DNA from: Pseudomonadota bacterium
Lineage (GTDB): Bacteria; UBA10199; 2-02-FULL-44-16; JBDRGF01
NCBI GenBank assembly: GCA_043818055.1
Contig: JBDRGF010000147.1
Span: forward strand, 1-23,854
Direction of reading: 5' to 3'
Length of the DNA stretch: 23,854 nucleotides
The notes beneath the pieces were generated by a model. It had not been told where the DNA came from. It saw only the letters and a program-made list of their open reading frames with translations, and made no database searches. Position 1 is the stretch's first letter. Every line of letters starts with the position of its first letter. The translations under genes and the position numbers were made by a program. This document shows positions 2-23,854 of this stretch, piece after piece.

Positions 2-3000
2 CCGACAAAAACGATTCACGGGGTAAGTATTACTCGTTTGACCTCCGTAGCCGGATTGACACGTCGAAGCAAACCCTTCGTCTTTGTAATAGTGAACAAT
101 ATATCTGAACTATCGCAATACAGAAATTCCAGAGTCGATGGTGTCTATAAAAATAAGCATATTTACGTAAATGGTTGGGGTATCAAAGGGGATGCAAATA
201 CGTTGAGCATCTGGGGGATGAAAGAGGGAGATATAGGAACCGGGGCTTGGCTGACAGTGAAAAATGGAAATTTGAGGGAGGCATTCAAGTGCTCGTTTGA
301 GGATGGAATACCTTATATTCCTTTAAAAGGGAGAGATATTGAAAAGCTGACTAAGATCGACTCCGGGTTTATTTTGGTGTTAGGAAGAAATGTTAATGAT
401 CTAAAGCGATTAAATTCTTCTCATCTCAATCATGCAATAATCTATTGCGATCATAGCATGTATAAAAATGTATGGAATTCTAAAGATGCCGGGGAGATTT
501 TGGAGATCTGGGGAATGAATACAAATGCTAAGCCCGGTGCCTGGCAGCTTTCTTATGTAAATTATTATACAAAGAGAGCGCAGCTTCTTCAACGCTTTAG
601 TGCTAAAGTTATAGCTAGACCTAGACCTAGACCTAGACCTACACCGCCGGTAAGGCCGACTCCAAGACCAACAACGCCACCGGCACTGGTAGATGTTGCT
701 CCACCTCCATCACTCGAAACATCTCTCAATGTGGCAAGTGACATTATCGCGTTTTTGGATATCTTATTAAATAGGGGAGATGAAGCGAAAAAGCTCCCAA
801 AACAAAAGTTGAAAGATCTTCTCGATAAATCCTTTCTCAAAACGATAACGTATCTTGCCGCGTATCTTAAGAGAAATGATATAAGAGGATATAATAATTA
901 TGTGAAGAGAGTATCTAAAAGAAAATACCAGAGGGTGTTTATAAGACACGGATGGGCAAAGCAAATAAGAAATTTTAATAAATTTGTAAGGAAGTTTTCT
1001 GATTTTTCAAAGATCATGGAAAAAGGCATTCTTAATGAAATGGATGTAGCACGGATTATTGTTAAGAGGGGGGAGCCTAGTCGTAAAAGAATGCTGGTTC
1101 AAAAGGTGACAATCTGGATAAAAGCTCAAAAAGCAGCCGGAAAATCTAAGAGAGATGTTCTATTTGATATCTCGCCACTCTTTCTGAGAGGGAAGAAAAA
1201 AAGATATATAAATCAGGCAGGGTTGCAGGTTGTTGAAGAGTTGAATTTGATTTATGGAACAACTCCTCCACGCGGACGACCTGTGCTGGTGGGAATAGAT
1301 CCAAAACAAGCGCTTAGAAAAGGTTTTACAGCTCATCTTTCAAAATTTAGTGATAAATTTACACCAGCTCAGATTGGAATATGGATGAAGCTTTCTGTTT
1401 TGTACTTTAAGACTTATAGGAATAAATTCAGAGACAATCCTTTCACAGAGCAGCTTCAGGAATCCCATCGAAAATTGAGAACTCTACTCGCGGGGAAAAT
1501 TTTAGGCCTTAACGGGGCATTCAGGAAAAAACTTCTTAATGGAGAGGCCAGTTTTACCGAATACGAGAAGAGTGCCCGTCCGGTTAAAAGGTTGCTCGCT
1601 GCACTGTTGAAATTAAAAGATGGTGAAGCTCAAACATTAAGGTCGATGGGCTGGAATACTCTGATAGTTTGGATGATGAAAAGGATTAAACGTGTTGATC
1701 TGGAAGCAGGGGGTGTCATCAATAGGAAGACTTCTCATCTAAGGCTATTGATTCAGGGTAGTCCTGCAAGGGAAGTCGCAAGCGCTAAAGCGGCAGATGT
1801 GGAATCTAAGTTAAAGGAGAAGGTGTCCGATGTTCTGTGGTTTGATAATTTGAGTAAAGCTGTTGCGAAAGCCGAAACTTATCGTGATTTGCGTAAAGTA
1901 TATAGGGTTTTCGGATCTAAGTTTCGTCTTGTAAATGCGCGAAAAGCTCCGCGCTATCTAAAAGAGGCGGTGCATAATGTCGGCATAGGATACATGAAGA
2001 ATGCCCTGGAATTATGGTTCAACAGACGACTTGAAGCGGCAGGAACAAAGACTGAGCTGAAAAAACTGCGCAGAGATATGATTCTGGGGATCAGAAAGTC
2101 GGTTCGTGGAGTACCTCGTTATTTAAGCCGCGGTGTTTACCATTTGCGTAGGAAGTTTCTTCGTAAAATTAAGTCTCGTATCGATATCGTCAATAATCGT
2201 GCAAAATCTAATCTGGGGGAATTTCAAAGATTTGCATCACAATTTAATATATCTAAGCAACGTTCAAAACAAATTTTCAGAGCCTCCTCAAATGCAAAAA
2301 AGCAATCCCTCTTTCTCAAAGCTATAGCCCCTTATCTTAAAAGAAAATTTGAACAGATCTTCTATCGTAATGTTCGCGGAAAAAAGGTCTTTCGAAATGT
2401 CATCAAGGAAAATGCGGCAATGATATCAGGGCTCAAAGCTCTTCGTAGTGAGTTGAATAGAAAATTTCAATCACATTTGAGAACCCCTTTTATCAATAGA
2501 GCATTCACTGATATTCGTAGCGCGATCAATTTTAGTTGGATGGATACCAAATGGGTGGGGATGAAAGCTGGTGAGGATAGAAATTCATTGCGTAAAAGAA
2601 TAAATCCAATGCTGGGAAGAGTGAAAAAAGAACTCGATCCACTCATGCGTACAGCAATATTTGGTGTCTATTCCCATGGGAAGTTGTTGTTAACGGCTAT
2701 CATCACAGCGATGTCGCTGGGCGCCGTGAAGGCTTTTGTAGAAGATTTGGGAAGAAGAGAGCTTGGTAGGCGAGCATATCGTTTGATTAAAAGAGCGAGA
2801 GATCATGACGTGATTTTGTCCAATAAAAATGTCAGGGATAGATTGATTAATGCCTTTTATAAAAAGTATATGAAAAACAGTAAGCCATATTTGGCCCTCA
2901 TCAAAATGCGAAAACAGTTGAGGGGGACGATGGCGAGCGCAATTAGGCGCTTGAGGGAAAATACAACTACGATTAAGAATAATCCTGCTTTTGATTCTGA

Positions 3001-4456
3001 TATGTTCAAAAAATATGTAGGGTCATATAGAAGAGTTAAAAAGAGCTATGATATAGCAAATAGCTATCGTGTGAGGATTTCTGCGAATTTTACATCGCCG
3101 GTTAGGATCCTGAAACATTGGATTGATAAAATTTCAAGGAGCACTAATCAGGATAGAGCGAATGCGAAAAAAGTTATTCACGCGATAAAAAATAGTGGTT
3201 TTAGAGGGGGTGTTAAAAGTGCCCTTATGCAATATTATTCTCTGTCTATCAGGCAGCAACCGGCAAGACGGACTCCACCTCCCATAAGGGTGAGTAAGAT
3301 AATCTTTAGTGTTTTTGGTTCTGCGAAATTGAGACCGAAAAAACAAACTTCTGGAGATTTTAGATTAGACGGAAACGATCCCAAAAAGTGGGTTGACAAA
3401 CTTTTAAGTGGAGTAAGAATTTTATCACTTACAGACGTCCAGTGGAGTTATGTTGTTAATAAGTTCGATGAGTGGAAAAAACAAAGTAATATAATGGATA
3501 GAAATAGGTTTAATGCTTCAATCAGATCTCTGCGAAGTGTCAGGGATACATTTTTCAAATTAAATTTGGTAGGTAACTACGTAGCTCTTACATCACATCT
3601 CAATGCTTTATTCGAGGTGAGAGATTTGCTAATCAAGGTGTTATTAAGTGGTTCAACTCAACATCAAAAAATCTTCATACAACAGGCAATCAAGAAGGCG
3701 ACCGTTGGGATTAGAAAGTTTAATTCGATGTATGATCGTAAAATAACAGAGGCACTGACAGAAATAAACAGAATAGGATCTTCTATAACCAAAGCAAGAG
3801 CTTTTACCAAACCAAATTCAGTTACTGCGCTCAGAGTGAAAAAACTGCTCTACTATACCACAGTGCTTAAGAGAAAGGCTGATTATGGAAAATTCAAAAT
3901 GGAGCTGCCGAGTTCAGTTGAAACATTGAGAAAAAAATGGAACGCTCTCATAAAACAGGCCGATAAACCAATAACCATTACGGTAAATGATGTTTCTCTG
4001 ACGCGTCAGATAAATCTCGAAAAATATATCCAACGTCTTGGGGTGAGAAGGAAGGATGTTGTGAGGATTAGGTTATTAAGGCTTGCACCGAATCAAAGTG
4101 GTCTAAGCTTTTTCCTTGCTAAGGAATCTCTTGAGTTTGGAAAGATGATTAAGATAAAAATCAGAAAGATCAGTGGTGGCAGGATGCCTACTAATCAGGA
4201 GATTAATCGATATCTTAATCCTAAATTTACACAGAGACATACCGGTGCTGGAAAAGGATATAAACTCGTTGCAAAATATTCAATACGTTTTTTTAGAAGA
4301 CACATTAAAGCTAGCATAAGTTTTAAGTCTGAATACGATTATGGACAGGAAGCATTGAAACAAAAGATCAGAAAAGATTTTCGATCAATTCTCAAATACA
4401 TTCCCCACCATGCTTCCGGCACTCTACATTACAAAGGTACCTATAATTTTAGATAG
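2..4456 (+). CDS. Very large (>1484 aa) Lys/Arg-rich hypothetical protein, probably 5'-truncated by the window edge
   Basis: Frame 2 has no stop from position 2 (ccg aca aaa acg att cac ggg gta...) to TAG at 4454-4456, so the TTG at 38 is probably not the true start. AT-richer than the downstream operon. Contains a Pro/Arg linker (RPRPRPRPTPPVRPTPRPTTPP) and an N-terminal duplicated module. No family recognised. Confidence 0.85.
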   Translation, partial: PTKTIHGVSITRLTSVAGLTRRSKPFVFVIVNNISELSQYRNSRVDGVYKNKHIYVNGWGIKGDANTLSIWGMKEGDIGTGAWLTVKNGNLREAFKCSFEDGIPYIPLKGRDIEKLTKIDSGFILVLGRNVNDLKRLNSSHLNHAIIYCDHSMYKNVWNSKDAGEILEIWGMNTNAKPGAWQLSYVNYYTKRAQLLQRFSAKVIARPRPRPRPTPPVRPTPRPTTPPALVDVAPPPSLETSLNVASDIIAFLDILLNRGDEAKKLPKQKLKDLLDKSFLKTITYLAAYLKRNDIRGYNNYVKRVSKRKYQRVFIRHGWAKQIRNFNKFVRKFSDFSKIMEKGILNEMDVARIIVKRGEPSRKRMLVQKVTIWIKAQKAAGKSKRDVLFDISPLFLRGKKKRYINQAGLQVVEELNLIYGTTPPRGRPVLVGIDPKQALRKGFTAHLSKFSDKFTPAQIGIWMKLSVLYFKTYRNKFRDNPFTEQLQESHRKLRTLLAGKILGLNGAFRKKLLNGEASFTEYEKSARPVKRLLAALLKLKDGEAQTLRSMGWNTLIVWMMKRIKRVDLEAGGVINRKTSHLRLLIQGSPAREVASAKAADVESKLKEKVSDVLWFDNLSKAVAKAETYRDLRKVYRVFGSKFRLVNARKAPRYLKEAVHNVGIGYMKNALELWFNRRLEAAGTKTELKKLRRDMILGIRKSVRGVPRYLSRGVYHLRRKFLRKIKSRIDIVNNRAKSNLGEFQRFASQFNISKQRSKQIFRASSNAKKQSLFLKAIAPYLKRKFEQIFYRNVRGKKVFRNVIKENAAMISGLKALRSELNRKFQSHLRTPFINRAFTDIRSAINFSWMDTKWVGMKAGEDRNSLRKRINPMLGRVKKELDPLMRTAIFGVYSHGKLLLTAIITAMSLGAVKAFVEDLGRRELGRRAYRLIKRARDHDVILSNKNVRDRLINAFYKKYMKNSKPYLALIKMRKQLRGTMASAIRRLRENTTTIKNNPAFDSDMFKKYVGSYRRVKKSYDIANSYRVRISANFTSPVRILKHWIDKISRSTNQDRANAKKVIHAIKNSGFRGGVKSALMQYYSLSIRQQPARRTPPPIRVSKIIFSVFGSAKLRPKKQTSGDFRLDGNDPKKWVDKLLSGVRILSLTDVQWSYVVNKFDEWKKQSNIMDRNRFNASIRSLRSVRDTFFKLNLVGNYVALTSHLNALFEVRDLLIKVLLSGSTQHQKIFIQQAIKKATVGIRKFNSMYDRKITEALTEINRIGSSITKARAFTKPNSVTALRVKKLLYYTTVLKRKADYGKFKMELPSSVETLRKKWNALIKQADKPITITVNDVSLTRQINLEKYIQRLGVRRKDVVRIRLLRLAPNQSGLSFFLAKESLEFGKMIKIKIRKISGGRMPTNQEINRYLNPKFTQRHTGAGKGYKLVAKYSIRFFRRHIKASISFKSEYDYGQEALKQKIRKDFRSILKYIPHHASGTLHYKGTYNFR
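615..641 (+). repeat. In-frame hexamer tandem repeat (CTAGAC)x4.5 encoding an Arg-Pro repeat
   Basis: ctagac ctagac ctagac ctagac cta, read directly from the sequence. Confidence 0.95.
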
Positions 4457-4544: not shown

Positions 4545-5666
4545 ATGTCAGAAAAGCCATTACAATCCAGAATCGAAGAGCTCGAGAGGCTCTTAGGAAT
4601 CGTCGAGCGTGGCAAGCATATGTGGGAATCGACGTTCGACGCAATTACCCAGCCTGTCCATATCATTTCCAGCGATTACATAATTCAGAGGGCCAATCTG
4701 GCTGAGTCGCAGATTCCGAAACTTCATATCAGGGATGTGATAGGGAAAAAGTGTTTCGAGGCCTTTGCAGGGCGAAATAGCCCCTGTGAGGGTTGTCCCA
4801 TGCAGAGAGCTATAACGAAAAATGGTTCCCACAAAGAGCTCCTGAAAAACGAAATTCATGAGCATGAGTTCGAGGTCAACGCTTTTCCATATAAGTCTGA
4901 TGATGGCGAAAAGGTCAGCGCAGTTGTCTATTATAGAGATGTCACCGAGGAGAAGCGGTTACAAAGAGAGGTTATTCAGCAGGAGAAGATGGCTGCTATA
5001 GGTATTCTCGCTGGTGGAGTCGCGCATGAGATCAACAATCCCCTATCCGGCATCATCGCATTTACCCAGCTCTTGAAGAAGGATGTAGGGGAGCAGGAAT
5101 CGATCAAAGAGGATCTCAAAGAGATAGAGAAGGCTGCGCTCAGGTGCAAGAAGATCGTCGCTGACCTTCTCGATTACTCGAGGGCATCGAGGGAGCAGGA
5201 GCGTTGTCCTGTTGATCTCAACGGGCTGCTCGAGAGGATATTCCCATTCATCAAGGGGGAGCTGACATCATATAATGTTAATTTCAACTTCGAAGAGGGA
5301 AAAGGGATACCTCCCGTCATTGGAAATCCCGACAGGCTCCAGCAGGTCTTTTTGAATTTGATGACCAATGCGTGCCACTCCATGCCCCACGGGGGAAAGC
5401 TCAGCGTGCGCACATCGCAAAAGGATAGCGCAGTCAGGATTGAAGTCGAGGATAGTGGAGTCGGCATTCCTGAGAAGGATATGAATAAAATTTTCGATCC
5501 CTTTTTCACCACAAAAGAGCCGGGAAAAGGGACAGGACTCGGTCTTTCTATAAGCTACAGAATAATAAAGGAACATGGCGGTAGGATAGAAGCGAAGAGC
5601 GAAGAGGGAAAAGGGACGTTGTTCTCGGTAGAGCTTCCGGTTGCGAATTTATCCAAGGGGGAATGA
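4545..5666 (+). CDS. Cytoplasmic PAS-domain sensor histidine kinase (NtrB/ZraS-like)
   Basis: H-box [11 protein letters not shown]-box [11 protein letters not shown]1 VEDSGVGI, F-box [10 protein letters not shown]2 GKGTGLGL. N-terminal PAS-like region ending YYRDVTE. No transmembrane segment evident. Confidence 0.95.
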
Positions 5667-5668
5667 TC

Positions 5669-7048
5669 ATGTCAAAGATCCTGATAGTTGATGATGAAGT
5701 AGTGATAAGGCGCGCGCTTGAAAAGTTTTTGGCATCGAAGGGACATGAAATACTGTGCGCCGAGGATGGAGTGAAGGCGCTTAAAGTTGCTGAAGAAAAT
5801 ATTATAGATCTGGCGCTTGTCGATCTTGTCATGCCTAAGATGGATGGTATCGAATTTATTACAAAGTTGAAAATTCAGCAGCCTGAAGCGGTTGCAATAG
5901 TTCTCACAGCTTTTGGAACGATATCCTCTGCCGTGCAAGCCATGAAAGCAGGTGCTTATCATTACATTACGAAACCCTTTGAACTCGATGATGTCGGGTC
6001 GCTTATCTACTCGGCACTGGAACACAAAAATCTAAAACGCGAAAATGTCGAACTGAAGATTCAGCTCAAAGAGAAGTATCGTTTTGAAAATATAGTCGGA
6101 ACGAGTGAGCCCATCAACTCCGTATTTGATATGGTGGAGAGGGTAGCTCCTACTGACAGCACGATTTTAATATTGGGAGAGAGCGGTACAGGCAAAGAAT
6201 TGATAGCCAAGGCGATACACTTCAACAGTTTGAGACGTGATGCTCCGCTGGTGATCGTCAATTGTGCAGCGATCCCCGAGGGACTTTTGGAATCGGAACT
6301 CTTTGGTCATGTGAGGGGCTCTTTCACAGGTGCGATCGCAAATAAGATGGGAAAATTCGAAGCGGCTGATACAGGAACCATTTTTCTGGATGAAATTGGC
6401 GATATGTCGATGAACCTGCAAGTTAAGCTATTGCGCGTTTTGCAGGAACAATGCTTCGAGTCTGTGGGCTCCACTAAAACTCACAAGGTCGATGTCAGGA
6501 TAATTGCCGCTACCAATCAGGATTTGGAAAAGGCGGTAAAGGAGAAGCGGTTTAGAGAGGATCTCTATTATCGTTTGAACGTTATTCCCGTTTTTATTCC
6601 GCCTCTGCGCGAACGAAGAAGCGACATTCCAATTCTTCTCGATCACTTTATTCAGAAGTTCAATACGAACATGAAGCATAACGTGACCGGAATAGGCGAG
6701 TATGCCATGGAGGCGCTTGAAAGCTATAACTGGCCCGGCAATGTCAGAGAGCTGGAAAATCTGGTCGAGCGCCTGGTCGTCCTGCATAAAGAGGGTTTAA
6801 TTGAACCCGATGAACTTCCCTCTCAATTCAGGAATCTGGTTCCCCATGTCGATAAGAAAGGGGTGTTTTGTACGGAAATCCCTGACGAAGGCATGTCTTT
6901 CAAAGATGCCGTCGATGAATTCGAAAATTCGCTGATCATTCAGGCGCTCAAAAAGACCGGCGGAAATAAAAATCAGGCTGCGACTTTGCTTGGTCTGAAC
7001 AGAACGACACTGGTCGAGAAGATAAAGAAAAAGGGTATTGATATATAG
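5669..7048 (+). CDS. NtrC-family sigma54-dependent response regulator (REC-AAA+-Fis HTH)
   Basis: REC ILIVDDE...LVDLVMP; Walker [15 protein letters not shown] loop; Walker [43 protein letters not shown] 5669 chosen because AAGGGGG lies 7 nt upstream; ATG 5663 overlapping the kinase stop is the alternative. Confidence 0.95.
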
Positions 7049-7071
7049 TCAGTTACCATAGGAGATGCGAA

Positions 7072-8484
7072 ATGAGAGAAGATTTTACTAATCTGTTGGT
7101 TGTTGATGATGATCGCACCCTGACTAAGGTTTTTGAAAAATTATCAAAGGATCACACGTGGTCGTATTCGGTTGCCATGACGGGGACGGAGGCACGGGAT
7201 CTTCTGGGACAGAATTTTTTTGAAGTCGCCCTAATCGATGTTCGACTCCCCGGTTTTACAGGCATACAGATTCTCGAATACATCAAACAGAACAATCTTC
7301 CGACAGAGGTCGTCATAATGACGGGACTCGGCACCGTAGAAACAGCCGTCGATGCCATCAAAAAGGGCGCCTATGATTACCTGACCAAACCCTTTGACGA
7401 TATCGAAAGGGTCGCGAGGGTTATAGAGAAGGCGATGGAGCGCAATAGACTGGTGCGCCGGCTCCATATACTTGAGAGAAAGTCTCCGACAGAGGTTGAG
7501 TATGAGGGCATAATCGGCAAAAGCCCGAGGATGCAGGAGATATACGCAACTATAGATGCCATAGCGCCGACCCCATCCACGGTTTTGATTCTTGGGGAGA
7601 GCGGGACGGGGAAGGAATTGATAGCCAGGGCCATTCATAGACGTTCTACAAGGGTCGATAAACCTTTTGTGGTCATCAATTGCGCAGCGATACCGAGTGA
7701 GCTTTTGGAGTCTGAACTCTTCGGCCACAAACGAGGCTCTTTCACTGGCGCTATAATGGATAAAAAGGGGCTCTTCGAGGAGGCTGATGGCGGAACAGTT
7801 TTTCTCGATGAAATAGCGGATATTCCACCTAACATACAGGTCAAGCTTTTGAGGGTATTGCAGGAGGGAGAAATTAGAGCTGTTGGCGAGAACAATTCAC
7901 AGCAGGTGGATGTGAGAATTGTCGCTGCGACGAATGTAGATCTTGTCAAAGCAGTGCATGATGGGCGTTTCAGAGAAGATCTCTTTTATCGGCTGAATGT
8001 GATAGGTATCAATCTTCCACCGCTCAGAGAGCGATTGGACGACATCCCGATTTTAGCCCAGCATTTTCTCGACAAATACAACAAGCGCGCCAACAAGAGC
8101 ATAACGACAATTTCAATCGATGCGATGCAATCGCTTCAGCATTATCGTTGGGTTGGAAATGTGCGGGAGTTGGAAAATATAATAGAGAGGGCCGTGGTGT
8201 TGACCAGAGACAATGTAATCAGGGCACAGGACCTTCCCTCCAAAGTATTAGGAGACTCTTTTTATCAGGTGGCCGAGGAAGTTAAAGAAGATATCACGCA
8301 TCTCTCATATCGATTGGCCAAGGAGAAGGCTTTGAGTGCCTTTAACAGGGCGTATATAACTGCCCTCATGAAGGATGCTAAAGGGAATATCTCTATAGCG
8401 GCAGATAAGGCCGGTATGGACAGGAGCAATTTTAAAAAGTTGATCAAGCGTTACAAGATGGATATAGGAAAGTTTAGAGACTAA
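7072..8484 (+). CDS. Second NtrC-family sigma54-dependent response regulator
   Basis: REC LLVVDDD...[64 protein letters not shown] upstream. Confidence 0.95.
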   Translation: MREDFTNLLVVDDDRTLTKVFEKLSKDHTWSYSVAMTGTEARDLLGQNFFEVALIDVRLPGFTGIQILEYIKQNNLPTEVVIMTGLGTVETAVDAIKKGAYDYLTKPFDDIERVARVIEKAMERNRLVRRLHILERKSPTEVEYEGIIGKSPRMQEIYATIDAIAPTPSTVLILGESGTGKELIARAIHRRSTRVDKPFVVINCAAIPSELLESELFGHKRGSFTGAIMDKKGLFEEADGGTVFLDEIADIPPNIQVKLLRVLQEGEIRAVGENNSQQVDVRIVAATNVDLVKAVHDGRFREDLFYRLNVIGINLPPLRERLDDIPILAQHFLDKYNKRANKSITTISIDAMQSLQHYRWVGNVRELENIIERAVVLTRDNVIRAQDLPSKVLGDSFYQVAEEVKEDITHLSYRLAKEKALSAFNRAYITALMKDAKGNISIAADKAGMDRSNFKKLIKRYKMDIGKFRD

Positions 8485-8507
8485 CAATTTAATGAAAGCG
8501 AGGAGAG

Positions 8508-8846
8508 ATGAACATCAAAATTCAATCATTGGGTGGAGTAAAGGTTTTACATTGCGATGGTTCATTGGATGCTGATACCGTCGAAGCGTTTAAAGAGGTA
8601 TCCTACAAGCTCATCAATGAAGGGACGAACAATTTCGTAATAGACTGCACTGAGGTTCAGTTTGTGGACAGCATCGGTCTTGGAGCTCTCATCTCACTTT
8701 TGAGAAGGGTTCGCGAGAAAGAGGGTGACGTTAAGATCTCCTCCTTAAACGAAGATGTTAAGACGATTTTTGAAATCACCAGGCTTCATCGCCTGTTTGA
8801 AATCAGCGCGGACTGGAAAACAGCCGCGAAGAGCTTTAACAGATAA
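8508..8846 (+). CDS. STAS-domain anti-sigma factor antagonist (RsbV/SpoIIAA-like)
   Basis: 112 aa; G-x-LD motif; phosphoacceptor motif FVDSIGLGAL; FEITRL; GAGGAG RBS. Confidence 0.92.
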   Translation: MNIKIQSLGGVKVLHCDGSLDADTVEAFKEVSYKLINEGTNNFVIDCTEVQFVDSIGLGALISLLRRVREKEGDVKISSLNEDVKTIFEITRLHRLFEISADWKTAAKSFNR

Positions 8847-8857
8847 TAGGGTTTATT

Positions 8858-9289
8858 ATGTCACTTTATCATCATTCCTTTTCTGTCAAAAGCGATCCTC
8901 ATAATATAAATTCATTGCGCCAGTGGATTTCTGAGGTGGGGGAAAAGCTTGAACTCTCCGGTTTTTGCAGAAAAGCCCGATTTCATATTTCCGCGTCCCT
9001 TGTGGAGGCAGTCGACAATGCCATCTTTCATGCGCACAAGGGAATGAAGGATAATCTCATAGATATATCCTTTACAGTCGATACCCAAACGGCGATATTG
9101 GAAGTCGCTGACAATGGAGAGGGCATCAAAAATTTTTCTCCCAAACTCGTGTCCGAATATGAAGAGCACGGGAGAGGTTTGTATATCATAAATCAGTTGA
9201 TGTCCGAGGTGCAAAGCGTATTTAAAAACGGCAAACATCACCTCGTTATGAAATATAATTTTAATGATAAGAGGGTGGATAATGAATAA
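8858..9289 (+). CDS. RsbW/SpoIIAB-like anti-sigma factor serine kinase (HATPase_c_2)
   Basis: N-box EAVDNAIFH, G1 VADNGEG, G2 EHGRGLYII; follows the STAS gene. Confidence 0.9.
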   Translation: MSLYHHSFSVKSDPHNINSLRQWISEVGEKLELSGFCRKARFHISASLVEAVDNAIFHAHKGMKDNLIDISFTVDTQTAILEVADNGEGIKNFSPKLVSEYEEHGRGLYIINQLMSEVQSVFKNGKHHLVMKYNFNDKRVDNE

Positions 9290-10532
9290 TACATCAATGG
9301 ATACTATCTACAGGTTGAGCCAGGCGATGGTGCAGGTGCGCGATTTGAACGAGGCTCTTGATTCAGTCCTCGATGAAGTTGTTGAATTGCTCAATGTGTC
9401 GAAGGTCTCTGTCATGACCTACGATTCGAAAAATGATGTTTTGAAAGTTATCGCAGCCAGGGGGCTCGATCCTTCAGTGATTGAAAAGGCTCTGGTTCGA
9501 AGGGGAGAGGGGATAAGCGGCAAGGTCTTCGCCTCTTCGGAACCTATTTTGATCGAGGATATCCGTACCAGCAGTTTTGATGAGAAGGGAAAGTATAAAA
9601 CAAGATCTCTGATGTCCGCTCCTGTCACATGTTTTCCAATGAAGGTCGGAGATATTCCGCTGGGAGTGATAAATGTCACCGACAGAAATGACGGAAAATC
9701 TTTTGATGAAAAAGATATGGAACTTTTGAAGACGATCTCAAATCAGTTTGCTGTTTACCTGCATCTGGTAAATCTCGCAATTCGCGATAAGGAACATGAA
9801 CGCATGAGGGAACAGCTCGAGATCGCCCGCCAAATTCAATACCGCCTCTTGCCTCTCACCCCTCCAAAGATCGATGGTCTTGATATAGCAGGAAGGCTCA
9901 TCACCGCGGAGAGGGTCGGGGGAGATTACTACGACTGTTTTGTTCACGATGAGAGAAAATCTTCATTTGTAGTTGCGGATGTATCCGGCCACTCAGTCGG
10001 GGCGGGACTTGTGATGGCCGCATTCAGGGCCGCGCTCAAGGCGCAGCTCGACAACGTATATTCACCTTCGATTTTGATGGAACACGTGAACAAGATCCTC
10101 TTTCAGGATCTCTATCAGGCGGAGCAGTTTATAACTGTCGCTTATATACAATATCAGAAGAGCCGGCAGCAGATAGTCTGCACAGTTGCAGGTCATCCTC
10201 CGATTTTAGTATGGCGCAATCAGGAGGAGAAGTTTGTTGAGATAACGACAGACGATCCGTGCCTCGGAATTGAACCGAGTCCTATGTTTCATGAGAAGAG
10301 TGAGATTCTTTCAAAGGGCGACATAGTAGTGCTCTACACCGATGGGGCTACTGAAGTTGCAAACGCGAGGGGAGAACGCTTTGGTATGCAGAGGCTCAAA
10401 GCCTGTATCGCTGATTCGTCCGAAGTGAGCGCGAAACAGATATCCGATATCATCGTCGAAAATGTTCAGTCGTTTAGTGATCCTAATCCGCTTAAGGATG
10501 ATGTAACGGCGTTAGTGTTGAAGATAGTGTGA
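9282..10532 (+). CDS. GAF + SpoIIE/PP2C phosphatase (RsbU-like)
   Basis: GAF region (GEGISGKV...LGVINVTD); ARQIQ..LLP; VGGDYYD; VADVSGH; LYTDG; DDVTAL. ATG 9282 is preceded by GAGGGTGG and overlaps the end of the RsbW-like gene. Confidence 0.93.
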   Translation: MNNTSMDTIYRLSQAMVQVRDLNEALDSVLDEVVELLNVSKVSVMTYDSKNDVLKVIAARGLDPSVIEKALVRRGEGISGKVFASSEPILIEDIRTSSFDEKGKYKTRSLMSAPVTCFPMKVGDIPLGVINVTDRNDGKSFDEKDMELLKTISNQFAVYLHLVNLAIRDKEHERMREQLEIARQIQYRLLPLTPPKIDGLDIAGRLITAERVGGDYYDCFVHDERKSSFVVADVSGHSVGAGLVMAAFRAALKAQLDNVYSPSILMEHVNKILFQDLYQAEQFITVAYIQYQKSRQQIVCTVAGHPPILVWRNQEEKFVEITTDDPCLGIEPSPMFHEKSEILSKGDIVVLYTDGATEVANARGERFGMQRLKACIADSSEVSAKQISDIIVENVQSFSDPNPLKDDVTALVLKIV

Positions 10533-14630: not shown

Positions 14631-16310
14631 CTAGGGGGTCTTCGGATATTTGTTCATCAATCTCACGACTAATTTATATTTGAGTAGGTAGTTTGTTGAG
14701 TCGTTGATGTTTACGGTATCGACCAAGAATTTAATTATATCGCCGCTGATTTTATCAACAACTCTCTTTGCCTCCTCCTTTCTTCCTTGTGTGTCAAGAA
14801 GTTCTAATGTTGCTATATAGACAGCCGCAGCTTTATAATTTTCGATCCATGTTTTCTTCTCAGATGAAAGTCTTGTTTCAGCGGTTGATATCTTCATTTT
14901 ATTCAGAGAATCAATGAGTTTTTCTGCCTCCTGATAGGACTGAGTGCTGATCAAATATCTGATATATTGATAATAATGGTTGGTTCGATTCTCCAATGGT
15001 GAATTTGCGTTTTCCCTGTAATAGTTTTCAAAATGCTGATTTAGGGTTTGTGCGTCAAAATCTGAATAGATTTCACCTCCAACGATAAGGGTGAACATGT
15101 CAGAATTTCGAAATGCAAATACAGCTTCAGTCCATTCGTATCCCCGATTTATATATATTTTTTTTAGCCTCTCCTTATCATCGTATCTACCTATAAACTC
15201 AATGCATTTCAATGCATCCCTACACATGTCGTCTAAAGCGTTTACCCATCCATTTGAATGGATAAGCCCACTCTTTTTAACCAACAACTCTTCGTGGCCG
15301 ATTCTTGTTTTTAAATATCTGCTGGTATAACTATCACACTCATTGAGTTTTAATGAAAGATCTCCAAATTCACGACCACAGAAGAGATTGTCGCGTATCC
15401 ATTCATATTGTTCTGTTAACAGTTTATTATGTAGTTGTACTTCCTGACGAAAAGTCTCTGGCCAGACAATATAATGTGTGATTTTTTCAACTAAATTATG
15501 TTCTGCTGCTGACACACCGCCTACAACCTGATGCATATTTTTTCTATAATATCCTGCATAATTTTTTTCCGAAAATAAAGGCTCTCCGGTTTTGAGATTC
15601 CATCCAATTTTATAAAAGCTCGTCAACATCTCATCGGATAGAGAGGTCGCAATTCCATGGGCTATCTCATGAACAAAGAAATAATAATTTTTATATTGAT
15701 CCGTATTATTTTTAGTCAGGACAAGTCTTATGATACCATCACCTTTGCCATATGCGGCTGCAGCCGTATCTTTGCCATTATCGATAAAAGGTACGATTAA
15801 AATAGAGCTGACAATACGATCTATATTTGGAATGTTCAGTTCTGCGACCTGTTCAACTATCTTCCTTACCTTTTTTGTATAATCCTCTATAAGATGCTCT
15901 GCCTCATTTTGACTATGTGTTTTTGTCAATTCACTCAATAAATTTGGTGCTTTTTTAATCTCAATATTTTCAAAATGGGTTTGGTTTTTAGAGTCGCTCT
16001 GTCCACAATAGGCGTCATTTGGGAGTTCTGGAGCATATTGACAACTTGGAATGAGTAGTAGCGTTGCTGACAATAGTGCTATGGAGGATAGTTTAGATGT
16101 GTTCCATAAAAAATATCCAAACGGATCGAAAGCCTCTGTATATGGTGTTACGATGAATGGATTGCAACGGGGTTGTGTTTGGGATCGACTTTTCTCACTC
16201 CAAAAGAATCGTTCCTGAGGGGGGGATGCAGGCTGTCGGGGTGGATAGAACCTCTTCTGTGTGTGGATTGTGTTAGGCCTAAAACCGCCTCTATATTGTA
16301 GTGATATCAT
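14631..16310 (-). CDS. Hypothetical exported/lipoprotein-like protein with an HExxH zincin motif and a helical C-terminus
   Basis: AAGGAG RBS upstream of ATG 16310; hydrophobic stretch IALLSATLLLIPSC near residue 90; FVHEIAHG (HEIAH at 15657-15671); AT-rich. Confidence 0.75.
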   Translation of the reverse strand: MISLQYRGGFRPNTIHTQKRFYPPRQPASPPQERFFWSEKSRSQTQPRCNPFIVTPYTEAFDPFGYFLWNTSKLSSIALLSATLLLIPSCQYAPELPNDAYCGQSDSKNQTHFENIEIKKAPNLLSELTKTHSQNEAEHLIEDYTKKVRKIVEQVAELNIPNIDRIVSSILIVPFIDNGKDTAAAAYGKGDGIIRLVLTKNNTDQYKNYYFFVHEIAHGIATSLSDEMLTSFYKIGWNLKTGEPLFSEKNYAGYYRKNMHQVVGGVSAAEHNLVEKITHYIVWPETFRQEVQLHNKLLTEQYEWIRDNLFCGREFGDLSLKLNECDSYTSRYLKTRIGHEELLVKKSGLIHSNGWVNALDDMCRDALKCIEFIGRYDDKERLKKIYINRGYEWTEAVFAFRNSDMFTLIVGGEIYSDFDAQTLNQHFENYYRENANSPLENRTNHYYQYIRYLISTQSYQEAEKLIDSLNKMKISTAETRLSSEKKTWIENYKAAAVYIATLELLDTQGRKEEAKRVVDKISGDIIKFLVDTVNINDSTNYLLKYKLVVRLMNKYPKTP

Positions 16311-16451: not shown

Positions 16452-17462
16452 TTACTCTTTTTCCTGAAACTGGAACTGCATGACGATATCGCCCAACTGG
16501 ATTTCGTCGTTGTGGAGCAGGATGTGTTCGTCGATCCTCTCGTTATTGACGAAGGTGCCGTTTGAGCTGTTGAGATCGCGCAGGATATACTGGCCACCCT
16601 CAAATTTGATCTGCGCATGCTGTCTTGAAATTTTGGGATCGTGAATGCAAATCGTGTTGCTCTTTCCCCTTCCAAAGGTGAGCGTCTGTTTGATCGGATA
16701 GACGGCGCCGGCCTCTTCACCATTTATGATGATGATCCTGGGAGGATGTTTTCCCTTCGATTCTTTCGGTTCATTGGCCACATCTACCTTGGCTGTCGGC
16801 TGCGTCTCCTCGCGTATTTTGGACTCTGATGTTTCGTCGGAACCAGCGAAATAGTTATCCTGGGGCTCTTCGTCGATCAGAAATTCCTCCTCGGGAGCAG
16901 AAGGTTCCTCTTTCACTTCAACTTTTGCAGTAACGTCTTTAACCTCTTTTATCTGTTTTTGACGGGGTGGCGCTTTGACTGCTCCCGCTTCTTCTATTAT
17001 CTCCATCTCTTCCGAGAATATCTCCTGATATCTTTCTATATTCGAATTCACTGCCGTGAGGAGGGTCTCAAATTTATTGATCTTCTCCTTCTTCTCGCGC
17101 GCGCCTTTTTGGAATTCTGTAGCTTTGAACTCGCCAAGGGAATTTCTGAACTCGAGTTCCTCGAGCGCATGTTTTTGTTCCTCGAGCTGAGATTCAATTT
17201 TTTCTTTCGTGCTGGTGAGCGTTTCGATTTCAGATTCGATATCCCTTTGCTTCTCCATAAGTTCCGTTGTGAATTGTTGCAACTGATTCTGATAATCAGA
17301 TTTCACCTTGGCATAGACCTGGCTGGATACCTTATCCTTTTGATCTTCAATCTTAACAAGGCGGTCTTTTATCAGCTGCCAACGCTCCTTGATCTTGGTT
17401 GAATCAGCTAAAAGCTTTTCATTGATAGGAAATTTTGCTTCTTGCTCGCTCTTTTCTTCCAT
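16452..17462 (-). CDS. Coiled-coil protein with an acidic linker and a C-terminal FHA domain
   Basis: FHA signatures TFGR, ISRQHA, DLNSSNGTFVN, GD. The N-terminal ~150 aa are E/K/Q-rich and heptad-like. AGGAGAG RBS precedes ATG 17462. Confidence 0.9.
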   Translation of the reverse strand: MEEKSEQEAKFPINEKLLADSTKIKERWQLIKDRLVKIEDQKDKVSSQVYAKVKSDYQNQLQQFTTELMEKQRDIESEIETLTSTKEKIESQLEEQKHALEELEFRNSLGEFKATEFQKGAREKKEKINKFETLLTAVNSNIERYQEIFSEEMEIIEEAGAVKAPPRQKQIKEVKDVTAKVEVKEEPSAPEEEFLIDEEPQDNYFAGSDETSESKIREETQPTAKVDVANEPKESKGKHPPRIIIINGEEAGAVYPIKQTLTFGRGKSNTICIHDPKISRQHAQIKFEGGQYILRDLNSSNGTFVNNERIDEHILLHNDEIQLGDIVMQFQFQEKE

Positions 17463-17502
17463 TTTTATCTCTCCTAAGCTCATGAGTTTTGAAAGGAGCG
17501 CT

Positions 17503-19424: not shown

Positions 19425-20333
19425 TCAATCAATCAGCGTCTGTTCTTCGATATTGCGATGTTTTATACGAGTGCCTGCGGTCTTTTTTGTCTTTTTTTCT
19501 TCCAAGTTCACCACATCGACAATCATTGCAGTTGCGTTGTCCTTTGCGATAATCTTTCCGGATGTGGATGATCGCTCCGGAGGGGCTGCCTTTATAGTAT
19601 CCATCATCTGGTCGATAGCCTCCTTTGAATTTTTGATCTTCAGAAAGGATTCTATTTTATCATCTGATAGCACCTTCGTCACACCATCCGTACAGAGGAA
19701 AAAACGGTCGTTCTTATAATACGACATCACATAGATATCTGCTATCGCCTTATCCTTCCCTCCTCCCAGACTCCTTGTGATGATGTTTCTTTTCGGATGC
19801 ACCTTCGCCTCTTCTTTTGTGATCTCGCCATCCCTCACCATTTGATCGACCTTTGAATGAGATCGCGTCAACTGTCTTAGCGTCTGTTCGCTGTAAAGAT
19901 AACAGGGCGAATCCCCTACGTTGAGTACATACGCCTTTTTACCCCGAAACAGCACGAGCACCAGAGTGCACCCCATCTTTTTGAATGCAAGTCTGTCTGT
20001 CTCGTCAACCAATCCTTCGTGAATCTCTTTGACTACCGTCTGTAAAATCTCTTCATATTCATCGATTGAGGCATCCCCGGAATCTGTTGGAAAGATCGTT
20101 ATATCCTTTGTCTCCCCTGTATCTGAAAATAAGGCATCAATCGTTTTTATTAGTTTAAAAGTCAATTCAGATGCGAATTTGCTGGCATACGCTCCACCTT
20201 CGAGTCCCCCCATGCCATCAGCTACGAGATAGAGTTTAGCCTTCTCATCTATGAAATAATAATCCTGATTATCCTTTCGTTCCAGCTGTTCTGTAGAGGC
20301 ATAGCACCGAATCGATGGGGATTTGTTGACCAT
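19425..20333 (-). CDS. PP2C/PPM-family Ser/Thr protein phosphatase (Stp1/PrpC-like)
   Basis: RKDNQD, LVADGMGG, GCTL, NVGDS, HPKRNIITRSLG, LCTDGV, DNAT; AGGAG RBS before ATG 20333. Confidence 0.93.
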   Translation of the reverse strand: MVNKSPSIRCYASTEQLERKDNQDYYFIDEKAKLYLVADGMGGLEGGAYASKFASELTFKLIKTIDALFSDTGETKDITIFPTDSGDASIDEYEEILQTVVKEIHEGLVDETDRLAFKKMGCTLVLVLFRGKKAYVLNVGDSPCYLYSEQTLRQLTRSHSKVDQMVRDGEITKEEAKVHPKRNIITRSLGGGKDKAIADIYVMSYYKNDRFFLCTDGVTKVLSDDKIESFLKIKNSKEAIDQMMDTIKAAPPERSSTSGKIIAKDNATAMIVDVVNLEEKKTKKTAGTRIKHRNIEEQTLID

Positions 20334-20413
20334 AGATTTTCTCCTTTTTTTAGTTTGCTGATTATAGTACAATCGGCGCAAATTTGAAAGAAGCAATTAA
20401 ACATGGGGGGGTT

Positions 20414-21469
20414 ATGATAGATAACGAATCGACAAGAATGGAGTCAGAAGTCCAGGGGCTAAGCGAGATTTTAAAGAACTACATCGTAATTCGGGACTTA
20501 TCGGAAAAAGAAGAGCCAAGCCAATGGACAAAGTCTCAATTCGCGATAGATACGCGAACAAACGAAAAGGTGCTTATATCGAAGCTCGATCCGATAAAAT
20601 TCAAAGTTTATTACAGCGTGATACCGCAGTCAGGATTGCAAACCGACGAAGAGCGCGAGGAGATCAGGAAAAAAGCGCAGGAGAAATACGAGAGCGAGCT
20701 CAGAGGGTTCGTCGAACGCTATAAGAAGGTCGCAGGTTTATCTCACCCAAACATAGCAAAGGTCATAGATGTCGGGATAGACCAGAACAAAGAGGCGATA
20801 GTCGTCACAGAGAAGGTTGAAGGGGTTCCGATTTTCGATGCTACAGATGGTATGAGCATTTTGGGGATGATACCTATATTTTTGGATATCCTGCAGGCCT
20901 TAAACTTCATCCACAGCAAAGATATGCTTCACCTGAACCTCAAATCCAGTCGTATCTTAGTCAAAGCGGATTATCCTTCGCAGACAAAATTAACAGATTA
21001 TGGTTACGCGATCGATACAGGCAACATACCCGACAGGAGATATGGCTCAGCGACCACAGCCGCGCCGGAGGTGTTGATGGGAGAGATCGAAAAGATCGGC
21101 GAAACGGCGGATCTGTATTCCTTCGCTGTGATCGCCTATTATTGCATGTGCAGGAATGTAGCCTTCAAGGCACGGGGAGGAATCTCCGACATCCTCAAAT
21201 TGAGGGACATCGTGAAGAATGAGCATGAACCTATGTATCCATCGAAAATAAATACGCTCATGCTTCAAAAGGAGTGTGACAAGGAATCTGCCGGCAAGAT
21301 ACAAAAGCTGGAAGGAATAATCATGGATGAGTTAAAACCCAATCCCGACGACAGGCCGGTTAAGACGGCGAGGGAACTTGCCAAGAAAATATCCGAACTT
21401 TTTCAAGATGAACTCAATAAAAAGAAATTTGGCGACACGACTACATCCAAAAGTTTATCGTCATTGTAG
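20414..21469 (+). CDS. Hanks-type kinase-fold protein, probable pseudokinase
   Basis: HPNIAKV, APE and ADLYSF are retained. The catalytic loop is HLNLKSSRIL (Asp to Asn, Asn to Arg), DFG is DYG, and there is no Gly-rich loop or canonical VAIK. A G-run RBS precedes ATG 20414. Confidence 0.88.
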   Translation: MIDNESTRMESEVQGLSEILKNYIVIRDLSEKEEPSQWTKSQFAIDTRTNEKVLISKLDPIKFKVYYSVIPQSGLQTDEEREEIRKKAQEKYESELRGFVERYKKVAGLSHPNIAKVIDVGIDQNKEAIVVTEKVEGVPIFDATDGMSILGMIPIFLDILQALNFIHSKDMLHLNLKSSRILVKADYPSQTKLTDYGYAIDTGNIPDRRYGSATTAAPEVLMGEIEKIGETADLYSFAVIAYYCMCRNVAFKARGGISDILKLRDIVKNEHEPMYPSKINTLMLQKECDKESAGKIQKLEGIIMDELKPNPDDRPVKTARELAKKISELFQDELNKKKFGDTTTSKSLSSL

Positions 21470-21480
21470 TTCGATATAAT

Positions 21481-23854
21481 ATGGATATAACAAGACTTTC
21501 CCCAGGCACGATAGTAGATAACAACCGAATCGAACGTGAAATCGGCAGGGGTGGTTTTGGAGTCGTGTATTTAGCTTTTGATCTGGAACGCAAACGACAA
21601 GTAGCATTGAAATTTCTGAATAGGGAATCACTTCTCGAATCATTCAAAATCAAGCACTCTGATAATCAATTAACACAAAATCAATTTGAAGAAAGATTTT
21701 CAGAGCATTATCTCAATGTTACTGAACGTTTTAAAGAGGAATATCAAAAACAATTGACAAGCGCCCGGCATCCTAACATTGCCACTGTTTATCAATTTGG
21801 TTTTTTCGAGGGACTCTTCTTTTTTACATCCGAATATATAGAGGGATACGATATTTTCGTTTTCACAAGAACTCTGTCCGAAGAAGGCATGATTCCTCTC
21901 TTTATACAAATGCTCGAGGGCTTGCAGTTCATTCATGATAACGGTCTGCTTCATGGTGATATCAAGCCTGAAAATATTCTGATAAAAAAGGAAAATGATA
22001 AATCAGTTGCTAAAATAATTGATTTCGGAATTGCAACAGCAATCACAGGAGACAAAAAACAACTGTTGGGCACACCTATGTATGTCTCTCCTGAAATTAT
22101 GTTGCAAAAACCAGATCAGATCGGCATCACATCTGATCTCTTTTCCGCCGCGGCTCTCATGTACTACTGCTTATCGAACACTTATCCCTTTTTGGATAGA
22201 TATGGATGGGATAACAAAGCCAAAAAATTAGCACAGATTATTGAAAAAGAATCCCCGCCGAAGACTCTAAAGAAGCTAATCTCATCTATGCCCGATTATC
22301 TCAACACCATCGTGATGAGATTGCTGGAAAAAGAAACTCACAATCGTTTTTATGGAAGCGCAAGAGCCGTGATAAACGCTTTAAAAACCCGCGCTCCAGA
22401 TGATTTCAAAGAAAATCTGGAAAGTAAATCATCATACCTGATTTCAAATGTGCATATAGGTCAGGAAGATGAGCGGAATCATATCAAAGAAGCTCTAAAT
22501 CTGCTCACATTGGGAAACCAGCCTTCGCCTTTTTCAATCTTCTGTATCTCCGGTGAAACAGGGTTTGGCAAGACCGGCTTTCTCAACGATATAAAGGAAG
22601 TCGCGGAGAAGAACGCAGAAAAATTATCATTGCATTCGATCAGACTTCCCGCCGACTTTGACAGTTTGCAGTCATGGGTTAATCGTCTTTCAATCACGAT
22701 TGACAAAAATATAAAGCCTCTGATTTTACTGATCGACGACCTGCATCTTTTGAATTGCAATCAATCTGAATCTAAGAACTTCATGAATTCAATAGTCGGT
22801 TTATCAACTTTTCTGATTGAAAGAGAAAATCACCCTGCACTACATTTAACAACAAAACCGGTCATCATATGTTTTTCGACCCATCCTGAATATCTCACTT
22901 CTTCGTTGGTCTTTGAATTATCAAAGATCAAAAACATACCGATGAAGAGAATCGATTTACAACCATTTTCGGAAGAGGATGTGAGAACCTTTCTTAATTC
23001 AACGGTAGCGTTGAAAGACAAAGAAATTTCACCCGATTGGATAAAAACTCTCTTACATCAGACAGGAGGTGTGCCAGCCGAACTATGCGAATGCCTTATT
23101 CAAAGAGATAGCCAGGGTTTGTTGTTTGATCTCGAAGGAAAGGTGCATTTTTTTTCAGCACCTTTGCCTGAGGTTATTAAAACTCAGAACAAAATCCCTC
23201 TCACATCTGAAACGCGCTTGTTGAAGAAATATGATGAACTGATACAACAGGAAAAAAACCTCTTAGATTTTATATCCGTTTGGAGTTTTAAATCGTTGAC
23301 TCCCCCACCTCGATTAACCGATCTAAAACACTTTTTTCCTGGGATGAGATTGACTCAAATGCTGACTGACCTTATTCAAAAACAAATTTTAAACTCCCAG
23401 ACATATAATTTTGACAATCCGTATTTTTCGGACATCATCTATAAAAAGGTGGACGACAAAGAGCGACAAAGATTGCACAGCCAGATATCCTTTTATCTAA
23501 AAACCGTATCCGCGCCACAGGGGTCAATCCTGCTTCACTCAGGATTCAGCGGAAAAGATATCACATCCAAATCCAGCCTGATCAAGCTGGCAAGACATCT
23601 TATCTTTCGAAAGGGATGTGTTTCACTAGCCGGGGAAATTTTAGAGCATTCCATTGAAAATGATGGCAATGTCGAGCTTCATATTTATATGAACATCCTT
23701 TTGATACATGCACATTATTATGCGGGTGAATATGAGATAGCAGAACAACTTTATAAAAAATTTTCTGAAACGGTTGATTCCATCCCACAGATATTGTTAT
23801 TGAGGCTTTATTCAGCGATATTACCAGTATATATCGCACTGAAACGATTTGATG
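21481..23854 (+). CDS. Ser/Thr protein kinase fused to a STAND-type P-loop NTPase and a helical (TPR-like) region; 3'-truncated by the window
   Basis: Absent from the ORF track because it has no stop in the window. Hand translation from ATG 21481: IGRGGFGVVY, VALK, HPNIATV, HGDIKPENIL, DFG, GTPMYVSPE, SDLFS; then IGQEDE, Walker A GETGFGKT (22552-22575), Walker B LILLIDD (22720-22740), TGGVP (GxP, ~23062). Confidence 0.93.
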   Translation, partial: MDITRLSPGTIVDNNRIEREIGRGGFGVVYLAFDLERKRQVALKFLNRESLLESFKIKHSDNQLTQNQFEERFSEHYLNVTERFKEEYQKQLTSARHPNIATVYQFGFFEGLFFFTSEYIEGYDIFVFTRTLSEEGMIPLFIQMLEGLQFIHDNGLLHGDIKPENILIKKENDKSVAKIIDFGIATAITGDKKQLLGTPMYVSPEIMLQKPDQIGITSDLFSAAALMYYCLSNTYPFLDRYGWDNKAKKLAQIIEKESPPKTLKKLISSMPDYLNTIVMRLLEKETHNRFYGSARAVINALKTRAPDDFKENLESKSSYLISNVHIGQEDERNHIKEALNLLTLGNQPSPFSIFCISGETGFGKTGFLNDIKEVAEKNAEKLSLHSIRLPADFDSLQSWVNRLSITIDKNIKPLILLIDDLHLLNCNQSESKNFMNSIVGLSTFLIERENHPALHLTTKPVIICFSTHPEYLTSSLVFELSKIKNIPMKRIDLQPFSEEDVRTFLNSTVALKDKEISPDWIKTLLHQTGGVPAELCECLIQRDSQGLLFDLEGKVHFFSAPLPEVIKTQNKIPLTSETRLLKKYDELIQQEKNLLDFISVWSFKSLTPPPRLTDLKHFFPGMRLTQMLTDLIQKQILNSQTYNFDNPYFSDIIYKKVDDKERQRLHSQISFYLKTVSAPQGSILLHSGFSGKDITSKSSLIKLARHLIFRKGCVSLAGEILEHSIENDGNVELHIYMNILLIHAHYYAGEYEIAEQLYKKFSETVDSIPQILLLRLYSAILPVYIALKRFD

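Follow-up and report, generated by a model that had tools for sequence, protein, structure and literature searches.

A free-standing pseudokinase, a PP2C phosphatase and a kinase-STAND-TPR protein encoded by a co-conserved, duplicating three-gene cassette

The window analysed here is an entire contig of 23,854 bp (JBDRGF010000147.1, hereafter C147) from a bacterial genome, G000, whose 2.93-Mb assembly is 93.6% complete. Its right end carries three genes: one for a PP2C-type phosphatase, one for a short, degenerate protein kinase that diverges from it, and a long one in which an intact kinase is joined with a STAND NTPase and with the beginning of TPR repeats (the 'partner kinase' below). These three genes constitute one co-conserved cassette that duplicates as a unit. 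The short kinase can be classed from its sequence as a pseudokinase; it is conserved, predicted to be catalytically dead, and under purifying selection where this could be measured. The features are as follows.

19425..20333, minus strand: PP2C (PPM/Stp1-type) Ser/Thr phosphatase, 302 aa (Pfam PP2C_2, E 2.9e-14; motifs)
20334..20413, no strand: divergent intergenic region, 80 bp; ATTATAGTACAAT could provide back-to-back -10 boxes and is kept in the C64 and C104 copies
20414..21469, plus strand: free-standing pseudokinase, 351 aa, with a Thr/Ser-rich tail (motifs, AlphaFold2, Foldseek)
20930..20938, plus strand: degenerate catalytic loop, His-Leu-Asn (sequence, alignment)
21481..23854, plus strand: kinase-STAND-TPR gene, cut by the contig end after 791 codons (domain matches, model, paralogues)
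21520..22404, plus strand: intact non-RD Hanks-type kinase domain, with HGD at 21952-21960 and a beta-3/alpha-C insert of about 25 residues (motifs, alignment)
22426..23505, plus strand: compact STAND nucleotide-binding oligomerisation domain (NOD), with a HIG motif, Walker A at 22552-22575, Walker B at 22720-22740, GxP at 23068-23076 and a predicted winged helix
23506..23854, plus strand: start of the arm/TPR helical repeats, the rest lying beyond the contig

The comparison set consisted of 93 genomes (species) of the phylum, all in one class, a composition that would fit UBA10199; the named relatives of the G000 DNA polymerase I belong to uncultured 'Deltaproteobacteria', at 50-57% identity. 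A profile search for the pseudokinase followed by locus retrieval yielded 28 genes, which lie at 27 loci and belong to 12 genomes; divergent members may have been missed, because the one in G073 surfaced only at locus retrieval and not with the profile. G000 alone holds the trio, in the same order and orientation, in six dispersed copies (contigs C147, C64, C42, C104, C2 and C99), all complete in genes and differing in their surroundings. The copies are 36-81% identical for the pseudokinase, 48-81% for the PP2C and 48-54% for the long protein, so that assembly repeats are rejected. Insertion at a tRNA site or as a prophage was also considered and set aside: no tRNA adjoins any of the six. Over the 27 loci, the partner kinase is directly downstream of the pseudokinase at 23, two genes further on at one, off the contig at one and absent from two. 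The PP2C gene adjoins the pseudokinase gene at 18 loci, in divergent orientation at 11 of them and co-directional at 7; at one locus it lies one gene off, from seven it is absent, and at one it is unknown. The complete trio stands side by side in 8 genomes, at 17 loci in all. The first-pass annotation of the window had taken the trio for a unit on the strength of a single copy; the six G000 copies and the 23 downstream partners uphold this. More than one PP2C of the cassette family was found in 10 of the 12 pseudokinase genomes versus 4 of the 81 others, most genomes having one, a comparison to be read with the facts that the genomes are kin rather than independent and that the profile was built from cassette PP2Cs. 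Pattern scans of named genomes for the cassette gave nothing, or generic kinases only, and the viral contigs searched contained no match to it.

Variants of the locus occur. At L039:4411-5167 (G045) a nucleotidyltransferase-HEPN pair is inserted between pseudokinase and partner kinase, and at L029:3538-5490 (G014) two tandem pseudokinase genes precede one kinase-STAND gene. A decayed cassette (L204:5598-7273 and L205:2560-4235) consists of an intact PP2C gene beside 150 codons that are left of the partner kinase, the pseudokinase being gone.

The pseudokinase most likely starts at ATG 20414, which is preceded by a GGGGG ribosome site; TTG 20384 and TTG 20396, overlapping and devoid of such a site, were rejected as starts. 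The window protein has no GxGxxG loop and no alpha-C Glu, a Ser at the position of the beta-3 Lys, HLN in place of HRD (HxD), and DYG. Its model nevertheless has the Hanks kinase fold (AlphaFold2 pLDDT 85.7; best Foldseek match, PknB). The same losses run through the family: the catalytic Asp, the alpha-C Glu and the Gly loop are each found in 0 of the 28 members and the beta-3 Lys in one, the DFG Asp being retained in 17 and the catalytic-loop Lys in most. All 28 are separate genes, of 293-373 aa. A search of 1.84 billion representative sequences added 23 single-domain members, some of them close to known ones and all devoid of genomic context, and none of the 23 has the catalytic Asp. Between the C147 and C64 copies, nonsynonymous and synonymous divergence (dN and dS) are 0.12 and 1.45, i.e. 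a ratio of about 0.08; with this ratio and with 51 sequences displaying an identical loss, a decaying pseudogene was rejected.

Based on motifs and modelling, the long protein is laid out as a STAND NTPase, with a predicted Walker-bearing nucleotide-binding domain (NBD), a helical domain (HD) with GxP, a winged-helix domain (WHD) and repeats. In the window copy, the kinase motifs are IGRGGFG, VALK, HGDIKPEN and DFG, and those of the NTPase are GETGFGKT (Walker A), LILLIDD (Walker B) and GGVP. All 27 partner-clade kinases keep the beta-3 Lys, alpha-C Glu, catalytic Asp and DFG Asp, and all 27 are non-RD, as are the 16 unpartnered kinase-STANDs. Walker A (GxxxxGK[ST]) is present in 21 of 22 long proteins, the remaining one having GRT; Walker B (hhhhD[DN]) was recognized by pattern in 21 and by alignment in the 22nd; GxP is conserved, G516 and P518 being invariant. 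The best Foldseek match of the modelled protein was PH0952 (6MFV; E 1e-13, 760 columns, TM 0.48 by target, rmsd 10.2), and its neighbours in a language-model atlas were AAA_16, MalT-type and adenylate-cyclase STAND-TPR proteins. The NBD is compact and scores weakly against AAA_16; a PDB sequence search with the NOD returned only weak RuvB and DnaA matches (E >= 0.002).

Because C147 ends inside the gene, the C-terminus is missing from the assembly, and it was not found in the other contigs. Five G000 paralogues are complete, at 1097-1156 aa: all five consist of kinase, P-loop NTPase and TPRs with nothing beyond, and a GAF or sigma-54 domain was found in none of them. Along the protein, divergence climbs from the kinase (dN 0.23-0.24) to the NOD (0.39-0.48) and the TPR region (0.39-0.72; five pairs). 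Long relatives (about 1670 aa) from other genomes were, in the three cases tested, kinase-STAND-TPR-GAF-sigma-54 activators. G000 also contains three kinase-STAND-TPR genes of a separate clade, on C19, C3 and C108 (L171-L173), without pseudokinase or PP2C; two of them adjoin a beta-helix gene of the kind described below.

The window PP2C matches the NCBIfam model Stp1_PP2C with an E-value of 9e-53, which is below the model's cut-off. Its metal-binding set is intact (NQD, ADGMGG, GDS, CTDG, DNAT), and all five motifs are found in 18 of 19 cassette PP2Cs, that of the window included. It ends in an acidic, Thr-bearing tail (EEQTLID). Thr-bearing tails thus occur on both the pseudokinase and the PP2C, and might, as a guess, be phosphosites; a housekeeping PP2C has a similar one. 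A promoter scan of the 80-bp intergenic region gave one sigma-70-like site, facing the PP2C gene, with the region as a whole at chance level. In the C104 copy (L003:1711-1906), a tandemly doubled element of about 110 bp lies between PP2C and pseudokinase genes; it resembles a miniature inverted-repeat transposable element or a repetitive extragenic palindrome and recurs, at 85-95% identity, on at least 14 other contigs.

These data agree with most of what the first-pass annotation had proposed for the individual genes. The PP2C, described as having its metal-binding Asp motifs, has all five motifs and a Pfam PP2C_2 match; the 80-bp divergent spacing is exact when ATG 20414 is the start; the degeneracy of the short kinase shows in the motif losses of the window copy and extends to the catalytic Asp in all 28 family members. 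Every motif named for the intact kinase-STAND fusion (GETGFGKT, LILLIDD, GxP) is present, the long gene does begin 11 nt after the end of the pseudokinase gene (21469 -> 21481), and its C-terminus is beyond the window since the contig ends inside it. What fails is the accompanying caveat, that such a protein might have a GAF/sigma-54 tail: the five complete paralogues of this clade all end in TPRs.

The pseudokinases likely arose by duplication of the kinase of their partner. The argument is an insert of about 25 residues between beta-3 and alpha-C that is common to both, being present in 27 of 28 pseudokinases and 21 of 27 partner-clade kinases, and in none of the 16 other kinase-STANDs. In a quick, unrooted tree (SH-aLRT support only, no outgroup), the pseudokinases form one group (support 100) and the partner kinases another (support 77). 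The six G000 copies are one clade in both halves of the tree, and several subclades match between the halves. Pseudokinase and partner distances are correlated: 0.67 for 24 pairs, 0.56 for 11 pairs (one per genome) and 0.79 for the 6 paralogues.

Two gene families recur next to the cassette. One encodes secreted beta-helix proteins whose C-terminal anchor is made up of a Gly-rich linker, a Cys, a hydrophobic helix and a basic tail; the other encodes a secreted subtilase with FG-GAP repeats. The tail of the former would be of the MYXO-CTERM type; no model of that type was matched when five beta-helix proteins were run against NCBIfam. Four of the six G000 cassettes lie less than 500 bp from a beta-helix gene, against 2% of random blocks. 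Within 5 kb, a beta-helix gene or its subtilase partner occurs at 13 of the 27 loci, spread over 9 of the 12 genomes, in varying orientation. The beta-helix gene was also found at a metagenome locus that had not entered the profile (L202) and in a longer copy of the G006 locus (L203). Over the 93 genomes, it is present in 22 and the subtilase gene in 30. The family is multi-copy in G000 (C99:37901-39349, C2:51-1091, C64:2-496, C103/C104, C19, C108, C38 and C46).

A sigma-54 motif precedes the beta-helix gene in all 15 cases tested in relatives and at L202 (consensus match), and its TGGCCT variant precedes all six G000 beta-helix genes, with a background of 0.006 per 300 bp; none was found upstream of the L203 gene. 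The motif was likewise absent upstream of 16 subtilase genes, and of 12 pseudokinase and PP2C genes of G000, the 80-bp region of the window included. None of the 14 sigma-54 matches of G000 is a kinase-STAND-TPR-GAF-sigma-54 protein; the genome has two FHA-sigma-54 activators. Genome-wide, G000 has about 50 sigma-54-like motifs upstream of genes, many of them for secreted proteins, lipoproteins or radical-SAM units, which make up a large putative surface or secretion regulon.

From the above, we tentatively favour, as a reading that could well be wrong, a TPR-gated STAND kinase that is braked by the pseudokinase and the PP2C and feeds sigma-54-dependent surface-protein genes. At rest, the long protein would be an ADP-bound monomer, as in the STAND biology of PH0952 and MalT. 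A ligand bound to the variable TPR sensor would bring about ATP loading and oligomerization, and thereby bring the non-RD kinase domains together; a modified peptide taken up by the cell, or else a product of proteolysis, would be a guess from the neighbouring genes. The pseudokinase might bind the kinase or NOD of its partner as a dead subunit, or be the first substrate through its Thr-rich tail, and would hold the long protein off as MalY does MalT; the PP2C would reset the system by stripping phosphates. The phospho-Thr signal may be relayed, for instance via the two FHA-sigma-54 activators of G000, to sigma-54 promoters that include those of the beta-helix surface genes. This output is inferred from the neighbourhood of the cassette and from the fused kinase-STAND-TPR-GAF-sigma-54 relatives. 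A complex prediction for residues 17-340 of the window pseudokinase and residues 1-665 of the long protein, both given as alignments, had a median ipSAE of 0.28 (0.09, 0.52, 0.28; mark, 0.32) and was used neither for nor against binding.

Several observations weigh against this scheme. The units are not strictly kept: four partner-clade kinases have no adjoining pseudokinase (two in G002, one in G018 and one on G045:C34), two pseudokinases have no partner kinase and seven loci no PP2C. The co-divergence of pseudokinase and partner can be explained by linkage alone. In addition, the C147 and C64 copies are younger relatives for pseudokinase and PP2C (dS 1.2-1.5) than for the long kinases (dS saturated), which argues against strict one-to-one pairing; as DNA identity between the two also drops, near position 21400, from 70-85% to 45-68%, pseudokinase and PP2C were apparently exchanged as a pair. 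The switch itself may be atypical, since two of its usual residues seem, by alignment, to be mostly missing: F-x-N or F-x-D is mostly found where the STAND consensus would have F-x-H in the WHD (H382, an ADP contact, in PH0952), and hhFT comes without the sensor-1 Arg. As to the output, the beta-helix and subtilase families were first defined, and their profiles built, from cassette neighbours. Fourteen of the 27 loci have neither neighbour, among them the copy in the window, which sits behind deoC-pnp; at nine of the fourteen the contig breaks off to one side. The pair does not need the cassette, since its members also occur in 12 and 19 of the 81 pseudokinase-free genomes, often adjoining histidine kinases, radical-SAM/peptide-binding units or another kinase-STAND clade. 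Lastly, variable loci attract accessory genes (insertion sequences, MNT-HEPN pairs, RHS-like genes), so that adjacency may not mean regulation.

Part of these facts would suit a self-contained accessory signalling module with targets unrelated to its neighbours, in which pseudokinase and PP2C damp all kinase-STAND copies and the beta-helix/subtilase link reflects common insertion hot spots. The apparent exchange of the two small genes, but not of the long kinase, between C147 and C64, their presence without a partner in G071, the varying orientation of the neighbours and the copies that adjoin housekeeping genes (pnp, the serS region, ndk) all point that way. We nevertheless regard it as somewhat unlikely: nine of the 12 genomes, from several families, have these two kinds of neighbour in common, as does a held-out locus; the two also lie beside another kinase-STAND clade, and relatives have the sigma-54 part fused. 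Quite improbable, in our estimate, is a module for cell contact or kin recognition, in which the surface protein, the protease or the RHS-like proteins encoded nearby would supply a self/non-self cue that triggers attack or dormancy. The surface proteins are indeed multi-copy and divergent, radical-SAM/peptide-binding/sensor-kinase units adjoin C42 and C99, and RHS-core-like genes lie by the beta-helix gene or the cassette in G008, G020 and G057; the latter are however restricted to these three genomes, and the mechanism overlaps with the braked STAND kinase proposed above. A very small chance is left to the pseudokinase being a repurposed enzyme, like SelO or SidJ, instead of a regulator. The DFG Asp kept in 17 of 28 and the catalytic-loop Lys kept in most would fit, and yet the pocket has no new invariant polar residue: only an Asn for the Asp (80%) and structural residues are conserved in it.

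A defence system of the type of nucleotide-binding leucine-rich repeat (NLR) receptors, here an anti-phage one, is among the readings put forward by the first-pass annotation, by analogy with plant ZAR1. The TPRs would sense a phage protein, the STAND part oligomerize and the kinase phosphorylate host proteins until growth stops, with the pseudokinase as an adaptor or decoy in the style of RKS1 and the PP2C preventing self-harm. The patchy distribution (12 of 93 genomes) and lineage-specific expansion (6 copies, one clade), the faster divergence of the sensor than of the kinase, the kinase as sole built-in output of the long protein, the pseudokinase gene placed ahead of the kinase gene, as an antidote would be, and the decayed cassette (L204/L205) are all in keeping with it. 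So are the likeness of the 27 non-RD kinases to the active domains of plant tandem kinases (PMC8761531), and the fact that most defence STAND sensors are TPR-like, with defence and non-defence clades interspersed (PMC13581612). But the non-RD state is a family trait, because the 16 unpartnered kinase-STANDs share it. The PADLOC (2023) STAND/Avs models fitted none of five STAND-TPR parts, the best E-value being 5e-6 to a generic TPR model; further matches were to generic kinase domains. The 105 flanking proteins inspected (26 loci and the window, within 5 kb, many contigs being short) contained no multi-gene defence system and yielded only single-gene or generic candidates: PDC-S01 twice, a DprA-like ShosA and one PDC-S09. 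With no match in viral contigs and with secreted and signalling genes as neighbours, the defence half of the analogy is not borne out, and we consider this reading unlikely.

Compared with known systems, the long protein has the NBD-HD-WHD-arm-TPR layout of PH0952 and MalT (PMC6468293), and MalY acting on MalT is a precedent for a separate protein that holds a bacterial STAND off (PMC6468293; PMC10427625). It differs in its N-terminal kinase effector, in having a dead copy of this kinase as its proposed inhibitor and in the accompanying PP2C. Among the seven families of a review of bacterial pseudokinases, the nearest is CP1, linked to COG3899 (PMC12599244). Like the long protein, it joins a cytoplasmic kinase to a STAND ATPase with TPRs; relatives of the long protein in the phylum add GAF and sigma-54 domains. 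According to that review, every CP1 pseudokinase is fused to the ATPase, whereas the cassette has an intact kinase in the fusion and, in 28 of 28 cases, a pseudokinase encoded on its own. No fused pseudokinase-kinase-STAND of the cassette clade was seen among the long proteins in the best 150 matches. SWACOS-type kinase-STANDs are named in PMC8195603 and PMC13581612. Unlike CP1 and SWACOS proteins, the long protein has no GAF, PAS or other output, and its compact NBD scores weakly against AAA_16. It is presumably SWACOS-like in combining kinase, STAND ATPase and TPRs.

Avs/AVAST proteins share the effector-STAND-TPR order and a patchy distribution (PMC13581612); the cassette, however, lacks a PADLOC match, lies outside defence neighbourhoods and has as effector a kinase with a dedicated pseudokinase and phosphatase. 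The TerY-P triad likewise has a PP2C and a Ser/Thr kinase in a three-gene unit (PMC10542128). The cassette is without its vWA gene, as the first-pass annotation had correctly noted (none in the flanks, the sole VWA match of G000 being on an unrelated contig), and its kinase carries STAND-TPR and not a zinc ribbon or OB fold. Like the plant ZAR1-RKS1/ZED1 complexes and tandem kinase-pseudokinase proteins (PMC8761531), it sets a pseudokinase, likely of duplication origin, next to a non-RD kinase with a STAND switch; it differs in being two genes instead of one and in the fusion of kinase to STAND, and the likeness is one of architecture. That it is a bacterial, independently evolved counterpart of these receptors, with the dead kinase duplicate as guard or decoy and the six copies as an expandable repertoire for phage or neighbour-cell cues, seems doubtful to us. 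No paper describing the cassette was found in the literature covered, most subscription papers and supplements being outside it, and its clade may already be contained in the 589 STAND clades of PMC13581612 or in the 42 families of bacterial Ser/Thr kinases cited by PMC12599244. Each part of the cassette belongs to a known kind; neither its arrangement nor the pseudokinase family seems to have been described in that literature. Stp/Stk (PrpC/PrkC-type) pairs also place an Stp1-type PP2C beside a Hanks kinase, and the cassette departs from them by having no membrane helix or PASTA domain, by the extra pseudokinase and by its multiple copies.

The pseudokinases of the cassette make up a bacterial family that is conserved and free-standing, seen in one phylum only, and likely to have originated in the duplication of the partner kinase. 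The six natural paralogous sets of one genome make both the effect of a pseudokinase on a STAND-gated kinase and the specificity of pairing testable. If the proposed output is correct, STAND kinases of an uncultured phylum would be connected with its sigma-54 programmes for surface proteins; if instead the defence reading were true, a plant immune design would have evolved convergently in bacteria.

Some further genes were noted around the cassettes and in the window. Units of radical-SAM protein, methyltransferase, peptide-binding protein and hybrid sensor kinase (L002:2133-6774, L005:13873 onward, C35 and C38) adjoin two cassette copies (C42, C99) or the beta-helix/subtilase pair. RHS-core-like genes, recognized by eye from their motif and without a Pfam match at E 1e-4, are at L033:9748-10803, L032:3-623 and L189:2680-3597; they adjoin a cassette or a beta-helix gene in G008, G020 and G057. 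Public sequencing runs match the window only as short pieces, with a small share from one RNA run, and are not usable for expression. The window opens with a frame of at least 1472 aa cut by the contig start and without Pfam or NCBIfam match (38-4456, plus strand). It is followed (4545-10532, plus strand) by genes for a PAS histidine kinase, for a tandem pair of sigma-54 response regulators and for a STAS/anti-sigma kinase/GAF-SpoIIE partner-switching set. On the minus strand, 2 kb from the PP2C, a gene for a coiled-coil protein with a C-terminal FHA domain, a possible phospho-Thr reader (16452-17483), is followed by one for a 559-aa protein without family (14631-16310).

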